Positions 1,770 to 64,000 of a stretch of DNA of 64,000 bases are shown one piece after another. The DNA lies in the NCBI RefSeq assembly GCF_056746865.1, contig NZ_CM163382.1, one strand, 5' to 3'. Every line of letters starts with the position of its first letter. Position 1 is the stretch's first letter. The translations under genes were made by a program, and so were the position numbers. Below the pieces are notes generated by a model. The model did no database searches. It saw only the letters and a program-made list of their open reading frames with translations, and was not told where the DNA came from.

Positions 1770-3773
1770 ATGTCCCGAAAAGACCTTGCCAATGCGATTC
1801 GCGCACTCAGTATGGATGCGGTACAAAAAGCCAATTCTGGTCATCCCGGCGCGCCGATGGGCATGGCTGATATTGCCGAAGTGCTGTGGAACGATTTTCT
1901 TAAACATAACCCCACCGACCCAACCTGGTATGATCGCGACCGCTTTATTCTTTCCAACGGCCACGCGTCGATGCTGCTCTACAGTTTGCTACATCTGACC
2001 GGTTACGACCTGCCGCTGGAAGAACTGAAGAACTTCCGTCAGTTGCATTCAAAAACCCCAGGTCACCCGGAGATTGGCTATACGCCAGGTGTTGAAACCA
2101 CCACCGGTCCACTTGGACAAGGTTTGGCGAACGCCGTCGGACTGGCGATAGCAGAGCGTACACTGGCGGCGCAGTTTAACCAGCCGGATCATGAAATTGT
2201 CGATCACTTCACCTATGTGTTTATGGGCGACGGTTGCCTGATGGAAGGTATTTCCCACGAAGTCTGTTCGCTGGCGGGCACGCTGGGACTGGGCAAGCTG
2301 ATTGGTTTTTACGATCACAACGGTATTTCCATCGACGGTGAAACCGAAGGCTGGTTTACCGACGATACAGCAAAACGTTTTGAAGCCTATCACTGGCATG
2401 TGATCCATGAAATCGACGGTCACGATCCGCAGGCGGTGAAGAAAGCGATCCTTGAAGCGCAAAGCGTGAAAGATAAGCCGTCGCTGATTATCTGCCGCAC
2501 AGTAATTGGCTTTGGTTCGCCGAATAAAGCAGGTAAGGAAGAGGCGCACGGCGCACCGCTGGGGGAAGAAGAAGTGGCGCTGGCACGGCAAAAACTGGGC
2601 TGGCACCATCCGCCATTTGAGATCCCTAAAGAGATTTATCACGCCTGGGATGCCCGCGAAAAAGGCGAAAAAGCGCAGCAGAGCTGGAATGAGAAGTTTG
2701 CCGCCTATAAAAAGGCCCATCCGCAACTGGCAGAAGAGTTTACCCGTCGGATGAGCGGTGGTTTACCGAAGGACTGGGAGAAAACGACTCAGAAATATAT
2801 CAATGAATTACAGGCGAATCCGGCGAAAATCGCCACCCGTAAGGCTTCGCAAAATACGCTTAACGCTTATGGCCCCTTGCTACCGGAGCTGCTCGGCGGT
2901 TCGGCGGATCTGGCTCCCAGCAACCTGACCATCTGGAAAGGTTCTGTGTCGCTGAAGGAAGATCCGGCGGGCAACTACATTCACTACGGGGTGCGTGAAT
3001 TTGGCATGACCGCTATCGCCAACGGCATTGCGCACCACGGCGGCTTTGTGCCGTATACCGCGACGTTCCTGATGTTTGTTGAATACGCCCGTAACGCCGC
3101 GCGGATGGCGGCACTAATGAAAGCGCGGCAGATTATGGTTTATACCCACGACTCAATTGGTCTGGGCGAAGATGGTCCTACGCACCAGGCTGTTGAGCAA
3201 CTGGCCAGTCTGCGCTTAACGCCAAATTTCAGCACCTGGCGACCGTGCGATCAGGTGGAAGCAGCGGTGGGCTGGAAGCTGGCCGTTGAGCGCCACAACG
3301 GACCGACGGCACTGATCCTCTCCAGGCAGAATCTGGCCCAGGTGGAACGTACGCCGGATCAGGTTAAAGAGATTGCTCGTGGCGGTTATGTACTGAAAGA
3401 CAGCGGCGGTAAGCCAGATATTATTTTGATTGCCACCGGTTCAGAGATGGAAATCACCCTGCAAGCGGCAGAGAAATTAGCGGGAGAAGGTCGCAATGTA
3501 CGCGTAGTTTCCCTGCCCTCGACCGATATTTTCGACGCCCAGGATGAGGAATATCGGGAGTCGGTGTTGCCTTCTAACGTTGCGGCTCGCGTGGCGGTGG
3601 AAGCAGGCATCGCCGATTACTGGTACAAATATGTTGGTCTGAAAGGGGCAATTGTCGGGATGACCGGCTATGGGGAATCTGCTCCGGCAGATAAGCTGTT
3701 CCCGTTCTTTGGCTTTACCGCCGAGAATATTGTGGCAAAAGCGCATAAGGTGCTGGGAGTGAAAGGTGCCTGA
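1770..3773 (+). CDS. tktB: transketolase 2
   Basis: ORF 1707-3773; true start taken as ATG 1770 ([21 protein letters not shown]...), giving 667 aa; thiamine-diphosphate transketolase motifs. Confidence 0.95.
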
Positions 3774-3796
3774 TGGTGATCGCCGGATGCTGTATG

Positions 3797-3866
3797 TTCC
3801 CCTCACCCTAACCCTCTCCCCAGAGGGGCGAGGGGACGGTCCGTGCGCTTTTTAGGGGCGCATCTG
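3797..3866. repeat. GC-rich imperfect palindromic intergenic repeat (BoxC/REP-like) between convergent tktB and ypfG
   Basis: ttcccctcaccctaaccctctccccagaggggcgaggggacggtccgtgcgcttttt: CCCTCTCCCC/GGGGCGAGGGG inverted arms; family assignment from memory only. Confidence 0.35.
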
Positions 3867-3875
3867 GGATTTTGT

Positions 3876-4919
3876 TTAACGGGTGATCCACAACGTGGGC
3901 CAGGCGTCTGGCCCATGCCAGTTATCACAGGTGGGTTCTGCGGCGTAACGCACCAGGCGAAAACGCTGACCGTCAAAGCGCCAGCGCGCCTGAATGCCAC
4001 AATCGCTTAATCCGCGCCCTTTTGCTAAGGTCACCAGTTCACGCGATTTTTCATCGAATGTTGCGTTCATCAGTTCCAGTTCATTCGTCTCCTGACCGCT
4101 GTTGAACGGCAAACGTAACCGAACCGGGCGCGAGGCCAGTGGCTTTTTACGCGACACAATCCAGGCCAAATCAATGGTGTTATAGGCCCCTGCCTCACAG
4201 CTAATCATCATCAGCGCTTTATCATCGGTCAGCGCAGTGACATTTACCTCTCGACGCAATGGATCAAGCGAGCAGCGCAGACCATTCATCCGCCAGTTTC
4301 CATAATCCAGCAAATCGTTGCGTTCTTCGAGTGAGAGTGGCGTCGGCGTTGGGTTAACCACCGCGACCTCTTTCAGCGCAGGCGCGGGCGGTACGCTGAG
4401 CGGCGGTTCATCCCCTTTCTTTATCCACGCGGTTTCACTGCCAACGCGCTTTTGCTGAGCATCTATAAACAACAACGCCGCTTTTAAGCCACTCAGAGAA
4501 ATGGTCTGATTGCCATCGCGTAAGGTGATTGCCTTCCCTTCCTGAATCATCTGCAAAAACGCGGTGAGGGTTGCCGTATCATCGGTTACTAATAACCATG
4601 GTGAAATCCGCCACTTGTCACCACTTAATGCCAACGGCTCACCATCTAACAGCAGCCGTGGCGCTATCTCCCCTTCCGACGCATCCGGCGACTTCAACCC
4701 GCCGCGCTCAATACGTAAAACGGCATCGGTATGCGCCCCAGCGCTGCGGCTCAGGGTCATCACCAGTCCATTATGATCGCCCGTATTGCGCGCCACACAA
4801 AAATTTTGATTATTACAGGTGACCTGCCAGTCGGAAAACGCCCGTTGCGCTGGTGCCGCCCACACCAAAGACGTCGGCAACAAAGCGAAAAAAAAGAGAA
4901 GGAAAATGCGATAGCGCAT
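3876..4919 (-). CDS. ypfG: DUF1176 family periplasmic protein YpfG
   Basis: 347-aa ORF with N-terminal signal peptide (MRYRIFLLFFFALLPTSLVWA); length matches K-12 YpfG. Confidence 0.9.
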   Translation of the reverse strand: MRYRIFLLFFFALLPTSLVWAAPAQRAFSDWQVTCNNQNFCVARNTGDHNGLVMTLSRSAGAHTDAVLRIERGGLKSPDASEGEIAPRLLLDGEPLALSGDKWRISPWLLVTDDTATLTAFLQMIQEGKAITLRDGNQTISLSGLKAALLFIDAQQKRVGSETAWIKKGDEPPLSVPPAPALKEVAVVNPTPTPLSLEERNDLLDYGNWRMNGLRCSLDPLRREVNVTALTDDKALMMISCEAGAYNTIDLAWIVSRKKPLASRPVRLRLPFNSGQETNELELMNATFDEKSRELVTLAKGRGLSDCGIQARWRFDGQRFRLVRYAAEPTCDNWHGPDAWPTLWITR

Positions 4920-51919: not shown

Positions 51920-52438
51920 GTGATGAAATTTAAAAAATGTCTTCTGCCTGTGGCAACGTTAGCGTCATTCACTCTGGCAGGATGCCAGTCAAATGCTGAT
52001 GATCATGCCGCCGATGTTTATCAAACCGATCAACTGAATACCAAACAAGAAACTAAAACCGTTAATATTATTTCCATTCTTCCCGCAAAAGTTGCCGTAG
52101 ACAACTCCCAAAATAAACGAAACGCACAAGCCTTCGGCGCGCTTATTGGTGCAGTCGCTGGCGGTGTTATTGGCCACAACGTCGGGTCTGGCAGCAATTC
52201 CGGAACGACGGCAGGTGCAGTTGGCGGCGGAGCTGTTGGCGCGGCAGCGGGTTCTATGGTGAATGATAAAACCTTAGTGGAAGGTGTTTCTTTAACGTAT
52301 AAGGAAGGCACCAAAGTGTATACCTCCACCCAGGTGGGTAAAGAGTGCCAGTTTACGACAGGTTTAGCCGTTGTTATTACCACGACGTATAACGAAACGC
52401 GTATTCAGCCAAATACGAAATGTCCTGAAAAGAGCTAA
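51920..52438 (+). CDS. yfgH: outer-membrane lipoprotein YfgH (glycine-zipper family)
   Basis: 172-aa ORF; lipobox LAGC; glycine-zipper segment (GALIGAVAGGVIGHNVGSG...). Confidence 0.9.
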   Translation: MMKFKKCLLPVATLASFTLAGCQSNADDHAADVYQTDQLNTKQETKTVNIISILPAKVAVDNSQNKRNAQAFGALIGAVAGGVIGHNVGSGSNSGTTAGAVGGGAVGAAAGSMVNDKTLVEGVSLTYKEGTKVYTSTQVGKECQFTTGLAVVITTTYNETRIQPNTKCPEKS

Positions 52439-52453
52439 TGATCAGGAGGAGTC

Positions 52454-52993
52454 ATGAAGAAAGTTTTTCTTTGCGCCATCTTAGCCTCCTTAAGCTATCC
52501 GGCTATCGCCTCATCATTGCAGGATCAACTCTCTGCTGTCGCAGAAGCGGAACAGCAAGGTAAAAATGAAGAGCAAAGGCAGCATGACGAATGGATCGCG
52601 GAGCGCAACAGGGAAATCCAGCAAGAGAAGCAACGTCGCGCAAACGCCCAGGCCGCCGCTAACAAAAGAGCGGCAACGGCAGCGGCAAATAAGAAAGCTC
52701 GTCAGGATAAACTGGATGCCGAAGCCACTGCGGACAAAAAACGCGATCAAAGTTATGAAGATGAGCTACGCAGCTTAGAGATTCAGAAACAAAAACTGGC
52801 GCTGGCGAAAGAAGAAGCCCGCGTTAAGCGCGAAAACGAATTTATCGATCAGGAACTGAAGCACAAAGCTGCGCAAACCGATGTGGTGCAATCTGAAGCT
52901 GACGCAAACAGGAATATGACTGAGGGCGGTCGCGATCTGATGAAAAGCGTGGGCAAAGCAGAAGAGAACAAATCGGACAGCTGGTTTAACTAA
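52454..52993 (+). CDS. yfgI: periplasmic coiled-coil protein YfgI
   Basis: 179-aa ORF with signal peptide and highly charged coiled-coil body; length matches YfgI. Confidence 0.9.
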   Translation: MKKVFLCAILASLSYPAIASSLQDQLSAVAEAEQQGKNEEQRQHDEWIAERNREIQQEKQRRANAQAAANKRAATAAANKKARQDKLDAEATADKKRDQSYEDELRSLEIQKQKLALAKEEARVKRENEFIDQELKHKAAQTDVVQSEADANRNMTEGGRDLMKSVGKAEENKSDSWFN

Positions 52994-53040
52994 GCGATGT
53001 CAGTAACTTCAAGCCTATGATTCGTGAGTATAATAAATAT

Positions 53041-53065
53041 CCTCCGGCATAGCCGGAGGTTTTTC
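53041..53065 (+). terminator. hairpin plus T-run downstream of yfgI (either the yfgI terminator or the detached right-end hairpin of IS200)
   Basis: CCTCCGG-catag-CCGGAGG followed by TTTTTC, 47 bp after the yfgI stop and 9 bp before IS2. Ambiguity explained in findings. Confidence 0.5.
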
Positions 53066-53068
53066 AAA

Positions 53069-53073
53069 TGCGC
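53069..53073. repeat. IS2 target-site duplication, left copy (TGCGC)
   Basis: 5-bp TGCGC immediately left of the IS2 left inverted repeat; identical pentamer immediately right of IS2. Confidence 0.8.
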
Positions 53074-53164
53074 TAGACTGGCCCCCTGAATCTCCAGACA
53101 ACCAATATCACTTAAATAAGTGATAGTCTTAATACTAGTTTTTAGACTAGTCATTGGAGAGCAG

Positions 53165-53530
53165 ATGATTGATGTCTTAGGACCGGAGAAACGCAGACGG
53201 CGTACTACACAGGAAAAGATCGCTATTGTTCAGCAGAGTTTTGAACCGGGAATGACGGTCTCCCTTGTTGCCCGGCAACACGGTGTGGCAGCCAGCCAGT
53301 TATTTCTCTGGCGCAAGCAATACCAGGAGGGAAGTCTTACTGCTGTGGCCGCAGGAGAGCAGGTCGTTCCTGCCTCTGAACTTGCTGCTGCCATGAAGCA
53401 GATTAAAGAACTCCAGCGCCTGCTCGGCAAAAAAACGATGGAAAATGAACTCCTTAAAGAAGCCGTTGAATACGGGCGTGCAAAAAAGTGGATAGCGCAC
53501 GCGCCCTTATTGCCCGGGGATGGGGAGTAA
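53165..53530 (+). CDS. insC: IS2 transposase OrfA (InsC; HTH DNA-binding component)
   Basis: ORF 53120-53530; start placed at ATG 53165 ([24 protein letters not shown]...), 121 aa. Confidence 0.9.
53482..53488 (+). other. IS2 programmed -1 ribosomal frameshift slippery site (A6G) in the insC/insD overlap
   Basis: AAAAAAG heptamer inside the 43-nt overlap of insC and insD; IS3-family OrfAB fusions are made by -1 frameshifting at such sites. Confidence 0.6.
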
Positions 53531-54393
53531 GCTTAGTCAGCCGTTGTCTCCGGGTGTCGCGTGCGCAGTTGCACGTCATTCTCAGACGAACCGATGACTG
53601 GAAAGATGGTCGCCGCAGCCGTCACTCAGATGATACGGATGTGCTTCTCCGTATACACCATGTTATCGGAGAGCTGCCCACGTATGGTTATCGTCGGGTA
53701 TGGGCGCTGCTTCGCAGACAGGCCGAACTTGATGGTATGCCTGCGATCAATGCCAAACGTGTTTACCGGATCATGCGCCAGAATGCGCTGTTGCTTGAGC
53801 GAAAAACCGCTGTACCGCCATCGAAACGGGCACATACTGGCAAAGTGGCCGTGAAAGAAAGCAATCAACGATGGTGCTCTGACGGGTTCGAGTTCCGCTG
53901 TGATAACGGAGAAAAACTGCGAGTCACGTTCGCGCTGGACTGCTGTGACCGTGAGGCACTGCACTGGGCAGTCACTACGGGCGGCTTCGACAGTGAAACA
54001 GTACAGGACGTAATGCTGGGAGCGGTGGAACGCCGCTTCGGCAACGAGCTTCCGGCGTCTCCAGTAGAGTGGCTGACGGATAATGGTTCATGCTACCGGG
54101 CTAATGAAACACGGCAGTTTGCCCGGATGTTGGGGCTTGAACCGAAGAACACGGCGGTGCGGAGTCCGGAGAGTAACGGCATAGCAGAGAGCTTCGTGAA
54201 AACGATAAAGCGTGACTACATCAGTATCATGCCTAAACCAGACGGGTTAACGGCAGCAAAGAACCTTGCAGAGGCGTTCGAGCATTATAACGAATGGCAT
54301 CCGCATAGTGCACTGGGTTATCGCTCGCCACGGGAATATCTACGGCAGCGGGCCAGTAATGGGTTAAGTGATAACAGGTGTCTGGAAATATAG
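53488..54393 (+). CDS. insD: IS2 transposase OrfB (InsD; DDE integrase-like catalytic component)
   Basis: 301-aa ORF ([23 protein letters not shown]...); rve-type integrase core. Confidence 0.9.
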
Positions 54394-54404
54394 GGGCAAA
54401 TCCA

Positions 54405-54409
54405 TGCGC
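54405..54409. repeat. IS2 target-site duplication, right copy (TGCGC)
   Basis: TGCGC immediately right of the IS2 right end. Confidence 0.8.
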
Positions 54410-54476
54410 CTATAAGGCTCTCTTACCAGCCGCGCCCTAACAGGCGCACACGATCTGACATTTGCATCCAACTTCG

Positions 54477-54935
54477 TTACTTACGGCCCGTAAACGGGCT
54501 GCCCGGATAGGGAATCGATAACTGCTCTCCCATTTTATCCTCTTCAAGCTGGTGCTTTATGTAATCCTGTATCTTCGCCGTGTTCTTACCCACTGTATCG
54601 ACGTAGTACCCTCTGCACCAGAACTCCCTGTTCCTGTATTTGAATTTCAAATCACCAAACTGCTCGTAAAGCATCAGACTGCTTTTCCCTTTCAGATATC
54701 CCATAAACCCGGATACGCTCATTTTAGGCGGGATCTCCACAAGCATATGGATATGATCTGCACAGCATTCAGCTTCCAGAATCCGTACGCTTTTCCACTC
54801 ACACAGCTTTCTCAAAATACTGCCTATTGCTCTACGCTTCTCTCTGTAGAACACCTGTCTTCGGTATTTTGGCGCAAAAACTATGTGATATTTACAGTTC
54901 CATCGGGTGTGCGCTAAGCTCTTTTCGTTCCCCAT
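54477..54935 (-). CDS. tnpA: IS200 transposase TnpA (Y1/HuH single-strand transposase)
   Basis: ORF 54477-54986; start placed at ATG 54935 preceded by GGGGG (MGNEKSLAHTRWNCKYHIVFAPKYRRQVFY...), 152 aa; HuH motif (HIHMLV) and catalytic Tyr region. Confidence 0.9.
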   Translation of the reverse strand: MGNEKSLAHTRWNCKYHIVFAPKYRRQVFYREKRRAIGSILRKLCEWKSVRILEAECCADHIHMLVEIPPKMSVSGFMGYLKGKSSLMLYEQFGDLKFKYRNREFWCRGYYVDTVGKNTAKIQDYIKHQLEEDKMGEQLSIPYPGSPFTGRK

Positions 54936-54940
54936 TGGGA

Positions 54941-55010
54941 CCCCCTTTTGATTTCTTGTTTGACACTTGCAGTTGCCAGACCGCAAGGTGTTTTAACAAA
55001 TCAAAAGGGG
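54941..55010 (-). promoter_or_regulatory. IS200 5'-UTR stem-loop that sequesters the tnpA ribosome-binding site
   Basis: CCCCTTTTGATTT (54941-54953) and AAATCAAAAGGGG (54998-55010) are exact reverse complements; the arm next to the ATG contains the Shine-Dalgarno sequence. Confidence 0.6.
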
Positions 55011-55045
55011 TTTTAATAACTGGCTCAAAGCTGAAAGCTTTCCGG

Positions 55046-55068
55046 AACCCCCAGCCTAGCTGGGGGTT
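55046..55068. other. IS200 left-end hairpin (palindrome near the element end)
   Basis: aaCCCCCAGC-cta-GCTGGGGGtt, 23 nt, about 10 bp inside the inferred IS200 left boundary. Confidence 0.5.
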
Positions 55069-55074
55069 TTCTGT

Positions 55075-55108
55075 GCACAAAAAACCCTCTGTAGTAACAG
55101 AGGGTTTT
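55075..55108 (-). terminator. rho-independent terminator of the prophage lysis cassette (minus strand)
   Basis: Minus strand reads AAAACCCTCTG-ttacta-CAGAGGGTTTTTTGTG: 11-bp stem plus T6, 127 bp downstream of the Rz stop and abutting the IS200 end. Confidence 0.6.
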
Positions 55109-55234
55109 GTTCATTCATAGTGCAGGGTCAAATCATTCCCACTCAATTGTTTACGACAATCATAACCAATTGAGTGATAACATTTTTCCAAAACTTAATT
55201 TTTCTAGTACCGTTTTATATACCGTCACCGGAAA

Positions 55235-55732
55235 TCAGTGCCACGATTTTTGCTTCTTCAGTGAATCGTATTGCTGTTCGCAGGATTCTCCTGCAATCCG
55301 ATACTTTTCAGCCTCAGCTGCTGTTGCGTTGTAAACTCGATTGCTTTCTTCAAGCATGTCGGCGAGCACACCGATGACCTTGCTGGCTGGCGTGCCAGTG
55401 GGGAAAGATCCGGTATAGTGTTCGGCGAGTCGCTTGGTTTTGTCAAGCTCGGCGCGCAGGCTGTCAGCAGCGGCATTAGCATGCTCAGCATCAACACGCG
55501 CCACATCGATACGGGATTGTGCTTCACGTTCAATTTGTGTTTTCTCCTGATCACGTTGTGACCTGGCCTTATCATCAGCCTGTTTCTGATCTTCCTGTGC
55601 CTGCGCATACCCGGCATCGTACTGGCGACTGCCGTGTATATTCCAGGCAACCACTCCGACGGTAAACAGAGCAGCAAGAATCACCACGATAAGCAGTTGT
55701 TTCCAATATGCTTTTACGAATGCCCAGATCAT
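55235..55732 (-). CDS. prophage i-spanin (Rz-like inner-membrane spanin)
   Basis: 165-aa ORF with one N-terminal TM helix then a charged coiled-coil body; start overlaps the endolysin stop (ATGA); last gene of the lysis cassette. Confidence 0.7.
55258..55506 (-). CDS. prophage o-spanin (Rz1-like outer-membrane lipoprotein) embedded in the +1 frame of the Rz-like gene
   Basis: ORF 55258-55677 in an alternate frame inside Rz; from ATG 55506 it encodes [17 protein letters not shown]... with lipobox LTA-C followed by a proline-rich short mature region; start codon choice tentative. Confidence 0.6.
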   Translation of the reverse strand: MWRVLMLSMLMPLLTACAPSLTKPSDSPNTIPDLSPLARQPARSSVCSPTCLKKAIEFTTQQQLRLKSIGLQENPANSNTIH

Positions 55733-56358
55733 ATAGCCAGCACCTTACTGGCAGTGACGTACCGCGCGCGCCGGTCGTCGATGCCGTTCCGGCCACCATT
55801 GATAATCAGAGTTACACGTGCAATATCACCGGTATACTTCATGCATCCTTTGCTGGCAAAGAACCACGCCGCGCTACGAGCCGCGTATTCGTCCTGCGCC
55901 AGCAGTTCAGGATTCTCCAGCAAGTCCACTTTCAAGCCGTTTCCGCAGTCACGATAGTTATTCAAACCGGTAATCTGGATAAGTCCGCGACCTCGGTAAT
56001 TCCAGCCATCGCCGGGGGCATTGTTCCCCATGCGTTTGCTGTACACCAGATTGGCAATCGCTCTCTGGCGCTCAGGTGGCAATGGTGGTTCACCAGCACG
56101 GCGCCCCAATGCGTTGGCCTGTCCCTGAGTGAGACGCCCAGCCCGAACGAAGTTAGCCAGTCCGCTGACGCTGTAGTTGAAATTTTCCTGCAACCGGGTG
56201 AAACCTCCAGACTCATGCCCGACCTGAGCAATAAACATTGCCTGATCTTCTGGTTTGCTGATACCAAACTCTTTCATCGCAGAAGTTATATGCGAGAACC
56301 AGCGTGCGGCAAGCGCCTCGCTAATACCAGCAGCTCGCTGGAATTGTTTAATCTCCAT
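55729..56358 (-). CDS. prophage endolysin, glycoside hydrolase family 19 (chitinase-like lysozyme)
   Basis: ORF 55729-56523; start placed at ATG 56358 preceded by GAGGT ([21 protein letters not shown]...), 209 aa; GH19/COG3179-like motifs ([21 protein letters not shown]). Confidence 0.8.
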
Positions 56359-56656
56359 GTTTAGACCTCGATACTTTGAAAATTTGAACGACGTTACCGC
56401 GCGTTTTAATAACCGCAGCGAGCATGACAGCGTTGATAATGACCTCAGATAAATCCACAGCCATTGGCGTGCGGAACCAGATTGCATAGGCAACACGAAC
56501 CGGAATACTGGCCGCAGCAACAATCAGGAAATAAGCAAGCCACCCCCCCCATCTTCGATGTTGAGATCCGTTACGCCGGAATGTGACAACACGAATTGCT
56601 ATGCCAGTACAAATAACTGCATTGGTGATAAGTAAAAACAGGTCATGCGTTACCAT
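56348..56656 (-). CDS. small membrane protein in lysis cassette (putative holin or antiholin, 2-3 TM)
   Basis: 102-aa hydrophobic ORF directly upstream of the endolysin gene and overlapping it by 11 nt; function assigned by position only. Confidence 0.5.
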
Positions 56657-57059
56657 CGTCTTTTCTCCCCGGAATTAACTCGCGTGGATTATCGGAACGG
56701 TGATAGAGCCAGATACCAATTCGCACTGCGACAATTGCTGATACGAATGCGCCAGCAGAGAAAACAATCCCTTTCTCGAACGAGTCCTGCGTGATGGTAG
56801 GGATCAGGCTGGCTATGCCGATAAGAATTGATGCTGCTGGTTTGTAAAAAAGAAGGCCGCAGAGAAAGCTAAGCATCGACAAAAGCACACGACGACGAAT
56901 GGGATACTCTACCGCAGAGGTAACAAAAATTACCGCTCCAGCCAAAGACCCCAAAGCAACCTCGGGAGGAACTCCTGCTATCACCGCCGCCAGAGAAGTC
57001 ATGCTAAGCCACTGATTCAAAGAATCACTGGTTGTCTGAATTGACATGATAAACACCAT
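56643..57059 (-). CDS. putative holin (multi-TM small membrane protein), first gene of lysis cassette
   Basis: 138-aa ORF with 3-4 predicted TM segments and a basic C-terminal tail; two Met codons within the first five (M1, M5); overlaps the next gene by 14 nt. Confidence 0.55.
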   Translation of the reverse strand: MVFIMSIQTTSDSLNQWLSMTSLAAVIAGVPPEVALGSLAGAVIFVTSAVEYPIRRRVLLSMLSFLCGLLFYKPAASILIGIASLIPTITQDSFEKGIVFSAGAFVSAIVAVRIGIWLYHRSDNPRELIPGRKDDGNA

Positions 57060-57187
57060 TTATTTCACATAAACAACTCCATTAAATAAATGTTTATCAT
57101 ACACAATAAACCATTTATGGATAATTATTACTCGTGATTTTTATGATTATTCGCGCATTTTTCTATCATTTTTATCCAGTGTGCCGT

Positions 57188-57211
57188 AAAACCACGTCCT
57201 TAAGGGCGTGG
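57188..57211 (-). terminator. hairpin terminator downstream of the tail fiber gene
   Basis: Minus strand: CCACGCCC-ttaa-GGACGTGG followed by TTTTAC; about 160 bp after the tail fiber stop. Confidence 0.5.
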
Positions 57212-57236
57212 ATGATGTCAACTGATGATGTCAACT
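57211..57236. repeat. perfect tandem direct repeat 2 x 13 bp (GATGATGTCAACT) in the tail fiber - holin intergenic region
   Basis: gatgatgtcaact gatgatgtcaact read directly from the sequence at 57211-57223 and 57224-57236. Confidence 0.7.
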
Positions 57237-57372
57237 ATTGGCTGGCTTTGACTGATATTGCAGGAGTTGTTGGATAAGATTTAAGTGACCGTCAAAGCGG
57301 TCACTTATGAGAAAAGGAAGTTAGACAAAGTGGCAAACAGGCTCATTGATGGCTACGTCAATGACCAAGGTT

Positions 57373-59775
57373 TCATTCAGACTCCAGCAACTCTATCCTG
57401 GCGAGAAGCGCTTCATATTTATCAAGTAATCGAGAGTAGTTCCTTCGTTGCATTGCAGCTTCCATTACCAACATTTCTTCATAACGAATGCCGTAACGGG
57501 AACCAGCTTCTATAGCAGGAGTGATTACCTCACCGGTTTCATCATCTATGACGGCAGGAGTGTCACCCCATTCATCATAACAGATGAAACCAAAGCGATG
57601 AGCATCAAGACCATGCCTTTCGAATGCCTCCACGTACCGTTGAGCAATGGCGCCGAAGTGCCAGCGGGCGCCATCAGCGCCTTTTTCTTTAATCCTATCC
57701 AGATACTTATACTGGACTAGCTGAACCTCTTCTGCGGCATCGAGAATGGCATCAGTCATTAGTAATGGGTCTGATTTGCAAATGGCATCTGACGTGATAG
57801 TGAACGCCGTTTGAGTGAATCCACCAGACCACGGAAACGAACTTGCCCCGCAAGGATAGGTATTTGCCGTGGCAGGACGTATTTGCTTCACAGCAAATAC
57901 GTGCGACGTCATTTCTGCTGTACCAGAACCCGTAACGCCGGGATCTCCACCAGAGACACGTAAAATCCCTGTAGGGACAGATGAGTCCGTCGATGAATAA
58001 AAGCGAATCTGCTGTGCTTCTGCAACACCAGGGTTACATAGCTTAATAGCTTTAGTTGTGAACGCATTAGTATCCGTATCAAATATCCAGTATCTGTTGT
58101 TTGAACCACCATCTATAATAACGTTCGCAAGAGATACACCAACTCGCTGTATATTAGAAATATTGTTAGCATTAGTACCAGCAGTTAACTGAATACCCCT
58201 TGTGCAATTATTTACACGCGAGTTACTAATAGTATTATTAGCAGCAAATCTAGTGCCAGCGGTATTTCCTGTCAGGAGAGTATGCGTAGTGTCCTTACTG
58301 AAGCCTGTCAATAACACCTCATTATTAGTGAACGTACCGTACTGAGCACATGATTTAAAACCGATATAAGGTGTGGTTAAATCCTCAGGAATACCATTCC
58401 ATACCATACAAAAGTTATCTGTAATTACACTATGGTTTCCTCCATTGTTAGACAAATCACCCAACTCTACAGCACTTATGGAAGTATTGAAGTGGTTATT
58501 TGTAACCTGGAACAGGTTACCAACATTGTTTTCAGAAACAACTCCGCGGCGACCAGCAATGATATGGTTACCGAAAACCACAACACCTTCGGTATCGTCA
58601 TGCGCGTACATGAAGGTGTCGAAGTTCTGATAAGAACCATTGACAATATTGATATTCTTTGTTGAGTACAGGTCGAATATTTTACCCATTCGATATGCTG
58701 GTACAGATGTTCCTCCACCAGTTACGTTAACGCCGTCAAATACACACTGACCAGCTCTGCTTAGCTTAAAGACAGTATCAAAAGAGGATTGAGTACCAGC
58801 ATCATTTGACACATCCAGGTCACGAACGATAAGTTGTCGGGCGTATTCGATTCCCCCTGTCCCTAAAAACGTAAGCGCAGTACCCTGAAGTTGCCCGGTA
58901 GCTTTTATCGTGAAATTACGTAAACCAACAGGTTTTCTTACTACAGTCGTACCCGAGTTATCAATGATAAGACCATATCCAGCAGCAAATTTTATTCCGC
59001 ATGTAGCCATGCTTACGCCAAAAACATCACTATAAAAATTAGTTACTGAGATGTCGCTTGAGCAGTTGTATATACGACGAAGCTTAATATCTAGACCAGT
59101 TTCCTTTGCTGCAGTAAAGGCATTGATCAGTGCCAAGGTATCATCAGCATCACCTCCAACAGCGCCAAAATCCTCAGGAGTGAGTGATTCCCTCATTTTA
59201 TCCTGGAACGTTCGGTATACTGCCCCATAACCATACTGAATAAACCAACCAAAACCACCAACAACCCCGGCGATTGCAGCATCGACATAATTACGCATTG
59301 AGCGATTATTTACAGCGTCCTGCTCAAGTGATGGATCTGCAAGGTTAGAAATTCTGTTTTGCTTTGCATCGTAATATTTTGCAAGCAAAGATGGTTTCAT
59401 CAATGCACGTCTGAACCACCCAAAACATTGCTGGATCAGCATCGTCAGGTAGTCAAAGGCATCTTCATGCACTTCGGGAAAAAACTTTCCCTGATTGCGA
59501 AGGTCTGTCTCCTGTACTACATCAAGCACACGATCTATCGTAATTCGCCATCCAGTAGCAAGCGGAGACGGAAGAACCACAGAACCGCCACTATAAGTGC
59601 CCGCCCCAGTTACCGTATAACCGGTATCCAGAACCAATTCTGTTACGTTCCCGTTCAGGTCAGACACCTGAACAACCAGGTCTGATTTTCTGAAAATTCG
59701 AAAAGTATACGGAAACGATGTCGTAACGCCGTTACCTGTGTATTCGTTGTGGTCAACTTCGGTTGAGACCGTCAT
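57373..59775 (-). CDS. prophage tail fiber/tailspike (N-terminal virion-attachment domain, central beta-helix-like domain, C-terminal intramolecular chaperone domain)
   Basis: 800-aa ORF preceded by GGAG; N-terminus has the tail-fiber motif ...NRISNLADPSLEQDAVN... (compare T7 gp17 RIVNLANAVDDRDAV); middle is Gly/Asn/Thr-rich repeat typical of beta-helix tailspikes; C-terminal ~130 aa resemble S74-type chaperone domains. Confidence 0.8.
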   Translation of the reverse strand: MTVSTEVDHNEYTGNGVTTSFPYTFRIFRKSDLVVQVSDLNGNVTELVLDTGYTVTGAGTYSGGSVVLPSPLATGWRITIDRVLDVVQETDLRNQGKFFPEVHEDAFDYLTMLIQQCFGWFRRALMKPSLLAKYYDAKQNRISNLADPSLEQDAVNNRSMRNYVDAAIAGVVGGFGWFIQYGYGAVYRTFQDKMRESLTPEDFGAVGGDADDTLALINAFTAAKETGLDIKLRRIYNCSSDISVTNFYSDVFGVSMATCGIKFAAGYGLIIDNSGTTVVRKPVGLRNFTIKATGQLQGTALTFLGTGGIEYARQLIVRDLDVSNDAGTQSSFDTVFKLSRAGQCVFDGVNVTGGGTSVPAYRMGKIFDLYSTKNINIVNGSYQNFDTFMYAHDDTEGVVVFGNHIIAGRRGVVSENNVGNLFQVTNNHFNTSISAVELGDLSNNGGNHSVITDNFCMVWNGIPEDLTTPYIGFKSCAQYGTFTNNEVLLTGFSKDTTHTLLTGNTAGTRFAANNTISNSRVNNCTRGIQLTAGTNANNISNIQRVGVSLANVIIDGGSNNRYWIFDTDTNAFTTKAIKLCNPGVAEAQQIRFYSSTDSSVPTGILRVSGGDPGVTGSGTAEMTSHVFAVKQIRPATANTYPCGASSFPWSGGFTQTAFTITSDAICKSDPLLMTDAILDAAEEVQLVQYKYLDRIKEKGADGARWHFGAIAQRYVEAFERHGLDAHRFGFICYDEWGDTPAVIDDETGEVITPAIEAGSRYGIRYEEMLVMEAAMQRRNYSRLLDKYEALLARIELLESE

Positions 59776-59860
59776 GTTAAATCTCCAGATAGTCGCAGCA
59801 CCCGTTGCGCCGCATATCTGGTTATTCTATTACCTGAAAAACCACATATGGATAGAAAGG

Positions 59861-59876
59861 CTGTAAATACGAATAG
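59861..59876. promoter_or_regulatory. weaker second LexA-like box (CTGT-N8-ATAG)
   Basis: CTGTaaatacgaATAG, one mismatch in the distal ACAG half-site, about 70 bp upstream of the strong box. Confidence 0.3.
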
Positions 59877-59931
59877 ATATTACCTTTCAGGTAATTTGCA
59901 AAACGTGCTGGATAGCAAACAAATTATTTGC

Positions 59932-59951
59932 TACTGTATAAATATACAGTT
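59932..59951 (+). promoter_or_regulatory. LexA (SOS) box immediately upstream of the small plus-strand ORF
   Basis: tACTGTATAAATATACAGtt matches the LexA consensus TACTGTATATATATACAGTA at 18/20 with CTGT-N8-ACAG intact; ends 6 bp before ATG 59957. Confidence 0.7.
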
Positions 59952-59956
59952 ATTGC

Positions 59957-60229
59957 ATGGAGAAGATTAAGATGCAGCAGTATCACTATCCACTGGAAGA
60001 CGGATTTACCGAAAGGATTCACACGCCGGGAGGCGTCAGGTCACTGGTGGAGGGATCGCACTTGATGAAATTACTCCGGGATCTCGATAAGGATGGATTT
60101 AATGTCGATGGCCCACTTGCCGAACTGACTGCACTGATTAACTACGTCACCAGCTCACAGATGTCTATGCGGGATCTGCAAACACATCTCGACTATTGTG
60201 CCGAACAATTACGAAAACAAACCCGGTAA
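59957..60229 (+). CDS. small SOS-box-associated prophage protein of unknown function (90 aa, or 85 aa from ATG 59972 which has the better GGAGA Shine-Dalgarno)
   Basis: ORF in track; soluble, charged, no TM segment; LexA box overlaps its promoter region; convergent with the 98-aa membrane protein gene. Confidence 0.55.
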   Translation: MEKIKMQQYHYPLEDGFTERIHTPGGVRSLVEGSHLMKLLRDLDKDGFNVDGPLAELTALINYVTSSQMSMRDLQTHLDYCAEQLRKQTR

Positions 60230-60235
60230 ATTTAA

Positions 60236-60273
60236 AGGCCGCAAGAGCGGCCTGTGACATGTCACGCTCTTTT
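60236..60273. terminator. bidirectional terminator between the convergent small genes
   Basis: GGCCGC-aaga-GCGGCC hairpin then GTGACATGTCAC palindrome and CTCTTTTTC; T-rich on both strands (tttaaattt on the minus side). Confidence 0.55.
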
Positions 60274-60558
60274 TCTGAATGATAGCCATTCGAAAAATGA
60301 TGACATTCCACCGCAGACAATAGCAAAGATGATCCCACCAAAGAAGAGAAGGCCAGCCTGCCACCACTCCCACCGCCATACATCCACAGCGCCAACCATA
60401 CCAACAATCGCTCCAACAAATGGAATATAGCTCACGATGAAAGCAATGGGGGCTGCAATTATCCAGTGCAATCCCCACCATGATTCAAGCCCAGCCATAA
60501 TTGCTGCCAACTGAAAAAGACCAACGACGATATAAACAATGAATCCTATAGCTTGCAT
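60262..60558 (-). CDS. small 3-TM inner-membrane protein of unknown function (moron; candidate superinfection-exclusion or conversion protein)
   Basis: 98-aa ORF with AGGTGA Shine-Dalgarno; three hydrophobic helices, Trp-rich loop (VDVWRWEWWQAG), basic C-terminus FRKRA. Confidence 0.6.
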   Translation of the reverse strand: MQAIGFIVYIVVGLFQLAAIMAGLESWWGLHWIIAAPIAFIVSYIPFVGAIVGMVGAVDVWRWEWWQAGLLFFGGIIFAIVCGGMSSFFEWLSFRKRA

Positions 60559-60570
60559 GTAGTCACCTAT

Positions 60571-60744
60571 TTACCCAGTAAAAATCAGAGGCCTCCCCTC
60601 AATAAGGCTTGCAACAAGAACTATTCCCTGCACAACAAAGATGAACCAGCAAATAGCTTGAGTCTGAGGGTTAAGAAAATATTTGTAGCGGTCAATAAAT
60701 AACAACCCACCAGAAATTATCACACTCAAAATAATTAAAAACAC
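60571..60744 (-). CDS. possible 57-aa two-TM membrane peptide (GTG start), translationally coupled to the upstream virion protein gene
   Basis: Not in ORF track (under 60 aa). GTG 60744 is preceded by AAGGAAG overlapping the 824-aa gene stop; product (M)FLIILSVIISGGLLFIDRYKYFLNPQTQAICWFIFVVQGIVLVASLIEGRPLIFTG; same frame as the upstream gene. Confidence 0.35.
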   Translation of the reverse strand: MFLIILSVIISGGLLFIDRYKYFLNPQTQAICWFIFVVQGIVLVASLIEGRPLIFTG

Positions 60745-60753
60745 AACACTTCC

Positions 60754-63228
60754 TTATTGCGGAGTGACATCCTGAGGTCGCCACCAGTATGTCTGGTTAA
60801 ACTCTTTCTTCGAACGTTGCTCCATTTTACGCAAATAGCCTGGTGAAAAATACTCCTGCATCTGGTTAAAGATCATATGATCGAGAGCCGCCTTTAAGTA
60901 CCAGAGATTCGCACCTGGCATCAAACCTTTCCCCAGCTTCACCAGATCACCACCAGTCTGCTCACTCTTCCCTTCCACAGCATTTAACGGTATGCCCTGA
61001 GCAATCTTCACTACGTCATCAACCAGACCAGCTACCGGGCCAAGCATCGACGCCAGCGCGCCGCTTCCGTACCTAGTGTGATCTGACAATAAAAAGTCAC
61101 CGTAAAGGCCAAGACCACCACCTTTCAGTAGAGCACCAAGCCAAAATTTAGCAGCATCTTCTCCTGTCATCTCGCGAGGATTACGACCAGACGCAAGGTC
61201 GTTAAGTTGCTGCGACAAAGCGCCAAGAATGGTCGTACTGGCAATAAACGTCGCAATATATGCCGCACGCCCACCAGCAGACGGCATACCCATAGCGCGT
61301 GACCAGTGACGCATAACCACCGAGATAGGGAACGATTTAAACAGGAAAACACTTCTCGTTAATTCACCTTTCCATGTTCCACGCTGAATACCAGAACCGG
61401 TTATCAGTTGCTCACGTGCTCCCGGTGTAATAACAGCCATATCAACTTCTTCAGTTACGGCACCGAGCAGTTTACGCATTGCCTCAAATTTCACGCGTTC
61501 AGGCTCACCAAGATGTTTAACTGCTGAATCAGGGATACGCATAATGCTTTCCGGTGTCAGCATCGTATTATTGCCGTTCCCCCAGTCCTCCTGTTGCGCC
61601 AGCTTCCATACGCTCCAGTCTGTGTCAGTAATCCCTTTGCTTTTCAGGATACGAAAATCAGAATCATCGAGGCTACGAAGGTCTGGTGTCCGTGACACTA
61701 CTTCTCCCAGGCTTCCCATCATGGTTACGCCATAGGCGCGCTTGTGCGCATCTGACCATGCTGTAAGCCCACTGGCACGCATTACCGCCGTTGCAGCCCA
61801 ACGAGACACAGACGGCCCCATATTATCCATCGCCCAGCGGTTAACGCTGCCAAGTAGAGATTCCATCGCCAGACCAGCGCGGCGCGCCCGCGCAAGTTCT
61901 GTACGGTTCGTTGGGTCCATAGCTTCAAGCTGGTTGCGGAATAACTGGTTCATTGGAAGGTTGGTAACCTTCGCAGACAGATACATGGTTCCAAGATCAG
62001 AGAACGATGACAGCAACGCGGATCCGAGTCTGCTGGCAACCAGCCAGTTGCGGATATTGTCAGACCATCGCGCGATGTGCGGATTCGCTACAGGCTGTGT
62101 CTTTCCGGAAATAAAATTGTACAGATTCTCTGTGTTGTTCGCCAGCCGCTCGACTTTACCGGTTTTACTCGGGTTAGCTGTTGCCGTTTCTGCCTTCACC
62201 TGATCAAGAAGAGAGCGGAAAACATGATCGGGGTTTGGGCCATATGTTTCCACCAGTGCAATATCTTTACTGATACCTTCAAGGTGACCGACCATGATTT
62301 CCCATAGAGAGCGATCGCCATAAAGTTGCTGATATTGCAGATAGGAATCTGCATCTTTGAAATGTATCTGTCGTGATGCATTACCACGGTTAGCACGTGC
62401 GCCGGAAATTCGCATTCCGGTATCAGTAAGCTTATTCAGCCCACCAGTAGCGATCGTGTTATAAGCCTCTCCAAGAAATGCAGACAACTCGGCATCGTTC
62501 ATCAGTTGTCCATCGGCTCGGGTATAATATTTGCGATCCAGCTTACCTATAACATCGCTAACCCATTTATCTTTTGATACCGCCCCAACCTTTTCCATAG
62601 AATGATGTTGAGGGATCCCCCAGTTTTCGAGATAGCCAATGTCCCCACCAGCATCATTAAACCGGCGGCGCAGCAGCTCTGTAACTTCTCTCCACGCCTT
62701 AGCACCTTTTCTTGCTTTAGCATTGCCAGTATTTTGCCCCCGCATTTCATATACCAGGTCACGTACGCCCGCTTCATCTTCAAACAGACCAAAAAAGCGA
62801 GGATCAACTGCTTCGAATGCCTCCTGCAATTGACTCAATGCATAATCACGGGTGGCTTTTGTTCTGGATTCAACAGAGAGGAAATTCGATTTACCGTCTG
62901 CATTAAAAGCAATAGTACGGTTAAGAGCGCCAAGTTTCCCATCAGCCCCTTGATAGCTATTGATAAATTTATCCAATCTCTGACGTGCGGCTATAGTGAG
63001 GGCCACACGACGTTTCTTTAATGCCGCTTCTCGCTGTAATTCTTCAGATGCCAATTGTGCTGCACGATACAACCGTTCTGATTCGGAAAGTTGTCGCCAC
63101 GACATCGGGTCATCACGAGCAATGGAGCGCATATTTCGATAAATGCGGTCTTCAATGTTCTGTATTTCTCGCGCCGTTAACGTGCGCTGCGCCGCCTGCT
63201 GGACCGCTTGTATACATTCCTGTCTCAT
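60754..63228 (-). CDS. large prophage virion protein, function unknown (putative internal virion / DNA-ejection protein by position)
   Basis: 824-aa ORF; N-terminal coiled-coil, Gly-rich C-terminal region; directly upstream of the tail fiber module; no catalytic motif recognised. Confidence 0.6.
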   Translation of the reverse strand: MRQECIQAVQQAAQRTLTAREIQNIEDRIYRNMRSIARDDPMSWRQLSESERLYRAAQLASEELQREAALKKRRVALTIAARQRLDKFINSYQGADGKLGALNRTIAFNADGKSNFLSVESRTKATRDYALSQLQEAFEAVDPRFFGLFEDEAGVRDLVYEMRGQNTGNAKARKGAKAWREVTELLRRRFNDAGGDIGYLENWGIPQHHSMEKVGAVSKDKWVSDVIGKLDRKYYTRADGQLMNDAELSAFLGEAYNTIATGGLNKLTDTGMRISGARANRGNASRQIHFKDADSYLQYQQLYGDRSLWEIMVGHLEGISKDIALVETYGPNPDHVFRSLLDQVKAETATANPSKTGKVERLANNTENLYNFISGKTQPVANPHIARWSDNIRNWLVASRLGSALLSSFSDLGTMYLSAKVTNLPMNQLFRNQLEAMDPTNRTELARARRAGLAMESLLGSVNRWAMDNMGPSVSRWAATAVMRASGLTAWSDAHKRAYGVTMMGSLGEVVSRTPDLRSLDDSDFRILKSKGITDTDWSVWKLAQQEDWGNGNNTMLTPESIMRIPDSAVKHLGEPERVKFEAMRKLLGAVTEEVDMAVITPGAREQLITGSGIQRGTWKGELTRSVFLFKSFPISVVMRHWSRAMGMPSAGGRAAYIATFIASTTILGALSQQLNDLASGRNPREMTGEDAAKFWLGALLKGGGLGLYGDFLLSDHTRYGSGALASMLGPVAGLVDDVVKIAQGIPLNAVEGKSEQTGGDLVKLGKGLMPGANLWYLKAALDHMIFNQMQEYFSPGYLRKMEQRSKKEFNQTYWWRPQDVTPQ

Positions 63229-63233
63229 TTAAT

Positions 63234-64000
63234 TTAACCTCTCAAGAAACACGCCACAGCAACATCAAACAGGCTGGAATCCTGTATTGCCTGCTCACTT
63301 TCCCTGTTCGCTTCATCCAGTACTTCACGCGCACTGCGCGATTGTGGATTACCATCATCATCCAGCACGGTGATTATCATGTCAGGTGATTCAAGCAGCG
63401 AGTCTTCAGCTATGCGCAGATCAATATCTCCTGCCTGATCTGACATCATTTTTTGTTCTGCCTGTTGCAATATTTTATCAGGCTCAAAAGGAGCTACTTC
63501 GTCTGGCGTCCTGACCTCTGCTGTTTTATAGAATGAAACAGCCTGAGCATTAAGTTCACTTTCTGCCTGCTGTCTCCGAGCCAGTTCTGCTCGAGCTTCA
63601 AAAAACTGACCGCCAGGCTCGTGCGGTGCCAACGCGTTACGGGAAAATTCCAGGCGTTCTTGTGCCTGCCGGATTCGTTGATCAATATCGCGAAGTCTGG
63701 CCTGTTTATCTGATCGAGCACGAGACAAAGCTTTACCGCTACCGGTTGGCTCTTCTGCAAGAATTTGTGCACGCTGTTCAGTGAGATTTTCAATAATTCG
63801 TTGGCTATTAGCGATTTCAGACTGGTAAACCTGTCTATCTCCACGCGGCAAAAGCTGCGCGGCCTGTTCTTCAAGCAACCGATTTTCTATAGCGCGCGCC
63901 GTTACTCCATCATCTACAGATGACAGAGCCTCATTAACTGCCTGAGACAGCAGACTCTTGCGCCCAGGAATTTCACTGAAAGATGCAGACTCAACAATGC
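63234..64000 (-). CDS. prophage coiled-coil virion/ejection-associated protein, C-terminal part (5' end beyond window)
   Basis: ORF track gives 63234-63878, but the same frame stays open to the window end (...SEIPGRKSLLSQAVNEALSSVDDGVTARAIENRLLEEQAAQ...); Gln/Glu/Arg-rich coiled-coil. Confidence 0.55.
   Translation of the reverse strand, partial: IVESASFSEIPGRKSLLSQAVNEALSSVDDGVTARAIENRLLEEQAAQLLPRGDRQVYQSEIANSQRIIENLTEQRAQILAEEPTGSGKALSRARSDKQARLRDIDQRIRQAQERLEFSRNALAPHEPGGQFFEARAELARRQQAESELNAQAVSFYKTAEVRTPDEVAPFEPDKILQQAEQKMMSDQAGDIDLRIAEDSLLESPDMIITVLDDDGNPQSRSAREVLDEANRESEQAIQDSSLFDVAVACFLRG

Follow-up and report, generated by a model that had tools for sequence, protein, structure and literature searches.

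Organization of the yfgI-guaA region

The DNA analysed here, referred to as the window, is a stretch of 64,000 nucleotides from contig NZ_CM163382.1 (RefSeq assembly GCF_056746865.1). Within it, the spacer between the genes yfgI and guaA contains an IS2 element and an IS200C element, which are made up of the following features.

52454-52993, + strand: yfgI (DUF5384), the left neighbour; Pfam DUF5384, E=9e-62; annotated as yfgI in strains 118UI, CAR and ST2747
Up to 53031: chromosomal flank to the right of yfgI, ending at the boundary with the IS200C tip
53032-53073, − strand: detached IS200C right-end tip of 42 bp (37 bp plus a 5-bp duplication), absent from empty sites
53041-53059, − strand: right-end subterminal hairpin with an 8-bp stem and a 3-nt loop (dG −10 kcal/mol, z −4.7)
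53069-53073: left copy of TGCGC, within the detached IS200C right-end tip
53074-54404, + strand: IS2 (IS3 family), 1331 bp, from the start of IRL at 53074 to the end of IRR at 54404, by direct reading
53165-53530, + strand: IS2 orfA, intact; Pfam HTH_Tnp_1, 1.8e-19
53482-53488, + strand: A6G slippery site AAAAAAG in the orfA/orfB overlap, a −1 frameshift signal
53488-54393, + strand: IS2 orfB, intact; Pfam rve, 8.5e-20, and rve_3, 1.7e-18 (DDE)
54405-54409: right copy of TGCGC, part of the IS200C sequence and single in the uninterrupted element
54410-55078, − strand: main body of IS200C, 669 bp, by empty-site comparison; DNA identical to that of strain 118UI
54477-54935, − strand: IS200C tnpA, 152 aa; Pfam Y1_Tnp, E=3.8e-38; the sole gene of the element, with no tnpB
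54945-55068, − strand: 5′ UTR stem-loop/STnc490 region; full-length match to Rfam STnc490, 146 bits (gathering score 56)
55046-55068, − strand: left-end terminator hairpin with a 10-bp stem, nt 11-33 counted from 55078
55079-55109: A6 run and native bidirectional terminator hairpin of yfgI and guaA, the original IS200C target; identical in CAR and ~5400 E. coli genomes
55134-55148, − strand: last codons and stop of guaA (TCATTCCCACTCAAT), kept at the prophage junction, where K-12 homology ends

The rest of the window (55134-64000) is filled by a phiV10/epsilon15-like podovirus prophage integrated at the 3′ end of guaA, with 94-97% identity over 62-72% of this stretch to phages HEMP4, phiv142-3 and phiV10. 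Its lysis cassette, located on the − strand at 55235-57300, comprises a DUF2514 Rz-like gene, a GH19 endolysin and two holins. This prophage variant differs from those adjoining IS200C in 118UI-type genomes, to which it is ~94% identical.

IS2 and its target duplication

The ends of IS2 were established by direct reading of positions 52400-55700. The element begins at 53074 with TAGACTGGCCCCC... (TAGACTGGCCCCCTGAATCTCC...) and finishes at 54404 with ...GGGGCAAATCCA (...GGAAATATAGGGGCAAATCCA), and it is bounded by imperfect terminal inverted repeats of ~40 bp (IRL TAGACTGGCCCCCTGAATCTCCAGACA..., IRR TGGATTTGCCCCTATATTTCCAGACA...). Both repeats and the length of 1331 bp are shared with the IS2 of K-12, as are the orfA/orfB layout, the A6G site, the HTH and rve domains and the 5-bp target duplication. 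IS2 transposes by a copy-out/paste-in route that employs a DDE OrfAB transposase made by −1 frameshifting on the A6G site, and the annotation of homologous IS2 copies in RefSeq mentions a ‘programmed frameshift’.

Relative to the K-12 copy, the window IS2 differs at 56 of 1331 positions without any gaps, giving an identity of 95.79% (95.8%). ISfinder places the isoform threshold at ~95% identity, which this value reaches, although it is borderline. On its sequence, the element is thus best classed as a divergent isoform of IS2. A plasmid of the chicken E. coli strain 573 carries an IS2 copy that is 100% identical to that of the window, where its RefSeq label is only ‘IS3 family transposase’.

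The preliminary description regarded the identical TGCGC pentamers on either side of 53074-54404 as evidence of a genuine transposition event. The + strand of the window contains TGCGC 133 times, and the chance of matching pentamers at two fixed positions is ~1 in 1000. E. coli strain 118UI provides the unoccupied IS2 target, as it has the same yfgI flank, the same IS200C and the same downstream sequence, with one TGCGC and without IS2. When positions 53074-54409 (IS2 and one TGCGC) are removed from the window, the two sequences differ at 0 of 1795 bp. This comparison excludes chance, and the pentamers, read directly, therefore represent a true target duplication derived from IS200C sequence, as originally proposed.

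The hairpin downstream of yfgI is the right end of IS200C

In the K-12-like strain CAR, the sequence after the yfgI stop codon reads ...CTTGAAGAT|AAAAAACCCTCTG... (AAAAAACCCTCTGTAGTAACAGAGGGTTTT), which includes a terminator shared with the convergent guaA gene. No sequence resembling 53032-53073 was found downstream of yfgI in this strain. The empty site predicted by joining 52760-53031 to 55079-55125 occurs in strain ST2747 with 319 of 319 bases matching, and several other strains have it at 99.7%; in ~150 of 5416 genomes, this query is split into two places. Comparison of occupied and empty sites gives a net IS200C insert of 711 bp on the − strand, consisting of 53032-53073 (42 bp) and 54410-55078 (669 bp).

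Eight independent IS200C copies, aligned with their flanks, also have at their right end the 42-mer that lies to the left of IS2 in the window. These copies are located at yiaY, yjjJ/deoD, luxS/emrB, yodD and glcA, in a Nissle 1917 island, on a plasmid and in strain SY019. All eight match the window from AATAAATATCCTCCGGCATAGCCGGAGG... (position 53032) to ...GTGCACAA (position 55080) and diverge outside these limits. In Yersinia, IS1541B and IS1541C have an overall identity of 87.7%, with the right-end 42-mer almost perfectly kept. Among the matches listed, an exact 31-mer spanning the right-end hairpin occurs in Enterobacter, E. albertii, Tatumella, Erwinia, Dickeya, Pluralibacter and Serratia and in dozens of Y. 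pestis copies, and the matches listed for a plasmid search include Yersinia and E. coli copies. Because the 42-mer is absent from empty sites and present on IS200C and IS1541 copies, the hairpin at 53041-53059 is the right-end hairpin of IS200 and not the yfgI terminator.

Some features of the preliminary description can now be adjusted. It had predicted an IS200 stub with a hairpin on the left side of IS2, which does exist, but its length is 42 bp (53032-53073) rather than 33 bp (53041-53073). The right end was put at 53041, 9 bp short, because the count included both copies of TGCGC, left and right of IS2, and because the net insert is 711 bp and not 707 bp. The same description named a match between 53041-53073 and the K-12 DNA downstream of yfgI as the result that would contradict nesting. 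No such match exists, which favours the nested arrangement.

In several loci of Y. pestis NCTC5923, two IS1541 right-end 31-mers lie 710-711 bp apart on the same strand, corresponding to head-to-tail tandem copies of IS1541. The period of these tandem Yersinia copies matches the 711-bp net insert in the window.

Body and termini of IS200C

The gene in 118UI that lies in DNA identical to the main body is annotated as an IS200C family transposase (WP_000526135.1). IS200C has no terminal inverted repeats, and its insertion produced either no target duplication or a minimal one. Each junction carries AA, so the positions of the termini may shift by up to 2 bp, and the insert is either 711 bp without duplication or 709 bp with an AA duplication. 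The left-end tip at 55078 carries this same uncertainty of at most 2 bp. The eight IS200C copies share AATAAATATCC...GTGCACAA and in most of them AAA follows, which leaves the ends of IS200C ambiguous by 2 bp. Judging from the alignments, the A-run common to the copies appears to reflect target choice and not element sequence.

The left end abuts the A6 run, which corresponds to T nucleotides on the IS200 top strand. In ~6 of the 8 aligned sites, the left end likewise abuts an A-run followed by a GC-rich hairpin, so that, as read on the IS200 top strand, it directly follows the T-tract of an intrinsic terminator. This suggests that IS200C may have a target preference for terminator T-runs.

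IS200C represents the IS200 group in E. coli and is closely related to the IS200 of Salmonella and the IS1541 of Yersinia. The Salmonella IS200 was compared by its published coordinates (PMC4513863), and the sequence alignments comprised E. coli IS200C copies and Yersinia IS1541. According to Ellis et al. (PMC4513863), the Salmonella element is 707 bp long, compared with the 711-bp net insert measured in the window, and has a bidirectional terminator hairpin at left-end nt 12-34. A stem-loop at nt 69-138 sequesters the SD sequence, and the art200 sRNA (formerly STnc490) is located opposite the 5′ UTR (PMC4513863). This published map agrees with a left-end tip at 55078/55079. The earlier placement of the left end at ~55079 is thus correct to within 1 bp, given that the hairpin occupies nt 11-33 from 55078 versus the published nt 12-34. 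The tnpA ATG corresponds to nt 144 on the same count.

Overall, the window IS200C has the features common to the IS200 group: a single 152-aa Y1 gene, a terminator hairpin ~11 nt from the left-end tip, the STnc490 (art200) region, a subterminal hairpin 9 nt from the right-end tip and a lack of terminal inverted repeats. It differs in being interrupted by IS2 at nt 670-674. The Rfam match to STnc490 is on the − strand, the same strand as tnpA, whereas art200/STnc490 is antisense to the tnpA 5′ UTR according to Ellis et al. (PMC4513863). It may be that the Rfam model represents the strand of the 5′ tnpA RNA rather than that of art200. Two additional Rfam matches, to Ysr202 at 52991-53064 (24.9 bits, gathering score 315) and to STnc490 on the + strand (24.8 bits), are below threshold and were discarded as noise.

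Order and distribution of the two insertions

Together, these data make it almost certain that IS2 inserted within the right end of an IS200C already resident between yfgI and guaA, and no evidence contradicting this nested insertion was found. The proposal that IS2 was probably nested in this way is strengthened by strains 118UI and SY019, which carry an uninterrupted IS200C at the same site. In SY019, this copy adjoins an intact guaA gene, and in at least 13 genomes, including 118UI, it adjoins phiV10-like prophages. The IS200C insertion at the yfgI site is old enough to be common to a set of E. coli lineages.

IS200C, which encodes a Y1/HUH transposase, entered the yfgI-guaA spacer first, presumably through the single-strand ‘peel and paste’ activity of TnpA, with its left end landing against the T-run of the shared terminator and a net 711 bp being added. 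Members of the IS200/IS605 family use TnpA and a single-strand circular intermediate, carry subterminal hairpins and leave no duplication (PMC5027513, PMC4513863). In a second and independent event, restricted to the lineage of the window, IS2 entered the non-coding right end of IS200C, presumably by means of its DDE OrfAB transposase, and TGCGC was duplicated. The insertion point corresponds to nt 670-674 of the 711 nt of IS200. The order of the two events, the boundaries of the elements and the duplication all follow from the comparisons with occupied and empty sites.

An alternative is that the 53041-53065 hairpin serves yfgI as its native terminator, in which case IS200 would be shorter or truncated, ending at the IS2 junction, and IS2 would lie beside it. 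The hairpin is located just downstream of yfgI, is followed by TTTTT on the + strand and has a terminator-like score. However, this hairpin sequence is entirely missing from the empty sites of the K-12-like strain and ST2747, where the native terminator is the CCCTCTG/CAGAGGG hairpin (window 55085-55105), every IS200C or IS1541 copy examined bears the 42-mer, at unrelated loci and in other genera, and in 118UI the hairpin is contiguous with the IS200C body. The empty sites and the other IS200C copies refute this possibility, to which we assign a negligible probability. It is also very improbable that the arrangement arose from homologous recombination between IS copies, or from an assembly error, with the flanking TGCGC copies being coincidental. 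Substrates for recombination do exist, since IS2 and IS200C are multicopy elements in E. coli (median of 4 and 2 places per genome, respectively). However, recombination of IS2 copies from different sites would give non-matching flanks without a direct repeat, whereas both flanks of IS2 in the window follow a single uninterrupted IS200C at the same site collinearly and without a mismatch.

The junction of yfgI, the IS200 right end and IS2 is present in 0 of 5426 complete E. coli genomes, and none of the IS200C copies in these genomes has IS2 at the position seen in the window. The absence of the junction implies that the IS2 event is private and recent. In the best matches from the junction search, the IS200 right end and the IS2 left end are 300-490 bp apart, and these proved to be cases of IS2 inside tnpA elsewhere.

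As in the window, the E. coli strains TUM1881 and IMT16316 carry IS2 or an IS2-like element inside an IS200-family element. In these strains, the insertion lies within the tnpA coding sequence, which is split into pseudogene fragments, whereas in the window it falls in non-coding right-end sequence, with tnpA left whole. The IS2-type elements occupy two different positions in tnpA (TUM1881, locus 2324-4404; IMT16316, locus 2610-4404). This indicates that IS2 has entered IS200 repeatedly and independently in E. coli. Both elements and their mechanisms are already known, and the arrangement in the window is an ordinary strain-specific nested insertion.

Consequences for IS200C mobility

On the IS200 top strand, the interrupted right end reads ...GGCGCA[IS2]GCGCA TTTGAAAAA CCTCCGGC-TAT-GCCGGAGG ATATTTATT. 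Between the tnpA stop codon and IS2 there are 68 nt, and between IS2 and the hairpin foot 9 nt. Consequently, tnpA, the whole left end with the 5′ UTR, the right-end hairpin with its foot bases and the terminal 9 nt all remain intact. The functional consequence of the insertion is something we infer from this layout and from published work on related elements.

The preliminary description proposed that IS2 would immobilise the resident IS200 copy. This is not supported, given that tnpA, both tips and the hairpins are intact and that a mini-IS200 carrying kanR transposes (PMC4513863). Functional inactivation of this copy is a possible outcome of the insertion, but we judge it to be rather unlikely. 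Several observations are consistent with a loss of function: IS2 parts the terminal 42 nt from the ~67 nt of remaining non-coding right end (IS200 nt 603-669), and the distance between the ends of IS200C is nearly tripled. In work on IS608, longer elements are reported to excise less well. Excision in the IS200/IS605 family uses single-stranded DNA at the replication fork (PMC5027513). In addition, the 42-nt tip alone may not suffice as a right end; the published mini-element used nt 566-707 (PMC4513863). In opposition to these points, the tnpA ORF, the left end, the right-end hairpin along with the 9 nt upstream of it, and the terminal ATATTTATT are undisturbed. Family members depend in cis on a subterminal hairpin, on a guide sequence located at its foot and on a cleavage site (PMC5027513), and the intact parts include these classes of element, which counts against immobilisation. 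Moreover, the mini-IS200 (nt 1-163 and nt 566-707 around kanR) transposes when TnpA is supplied (PMC4513863), such that internal cargo as such is tolerated by IS200.

The IS200C copy is therefore best described as interrupted and not necessarily dead; immobilisation is possible, and a reduced efficiency seems more likely. At most, IS200C::IS2 is now an element of 2047 bp, for which a lower efficiency of single-strand excision is to be expected. IS200 itself is notoriously inactive and almost immobile.

A more speculative view, which we consider improbable, is that IS200C::IS2 may be a competent 2047-bp ‘peel-and-paste’ element carrying IS2 as passenger cargo, or that transcription reading out of IS2 into the 3′ end of tnpA may impose an additional antisense restraint on IS200C. 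The possible competence derives from the fact that tnpA, the left end and, at the right end, the terminal hairpin and tip are intact. A promoter scan of the region found no promoters.

Read inwards from the flanking DNA, the right-end hairpin of IS200C and its TTTTT (53041-53065, + strand) look like an intrinsic terminator. At occupied sites, this hairpin would replace the native yfgI terminator, which is shifted 711 bp away, or 2047 bp in the window.

The analysis fixes the boundaries of two IS elements and assigns the hairpin downstream of yfgI to IS200C instead of the chromosome, with little import beyond annotation. The junction, given its absence from the complete E. coli genomes searched, is a strain-specific marker that could serve typing. 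Finally, IS200C::IS2 offers a natural case in which to test the minimum right-end sequence that IS200 requires.
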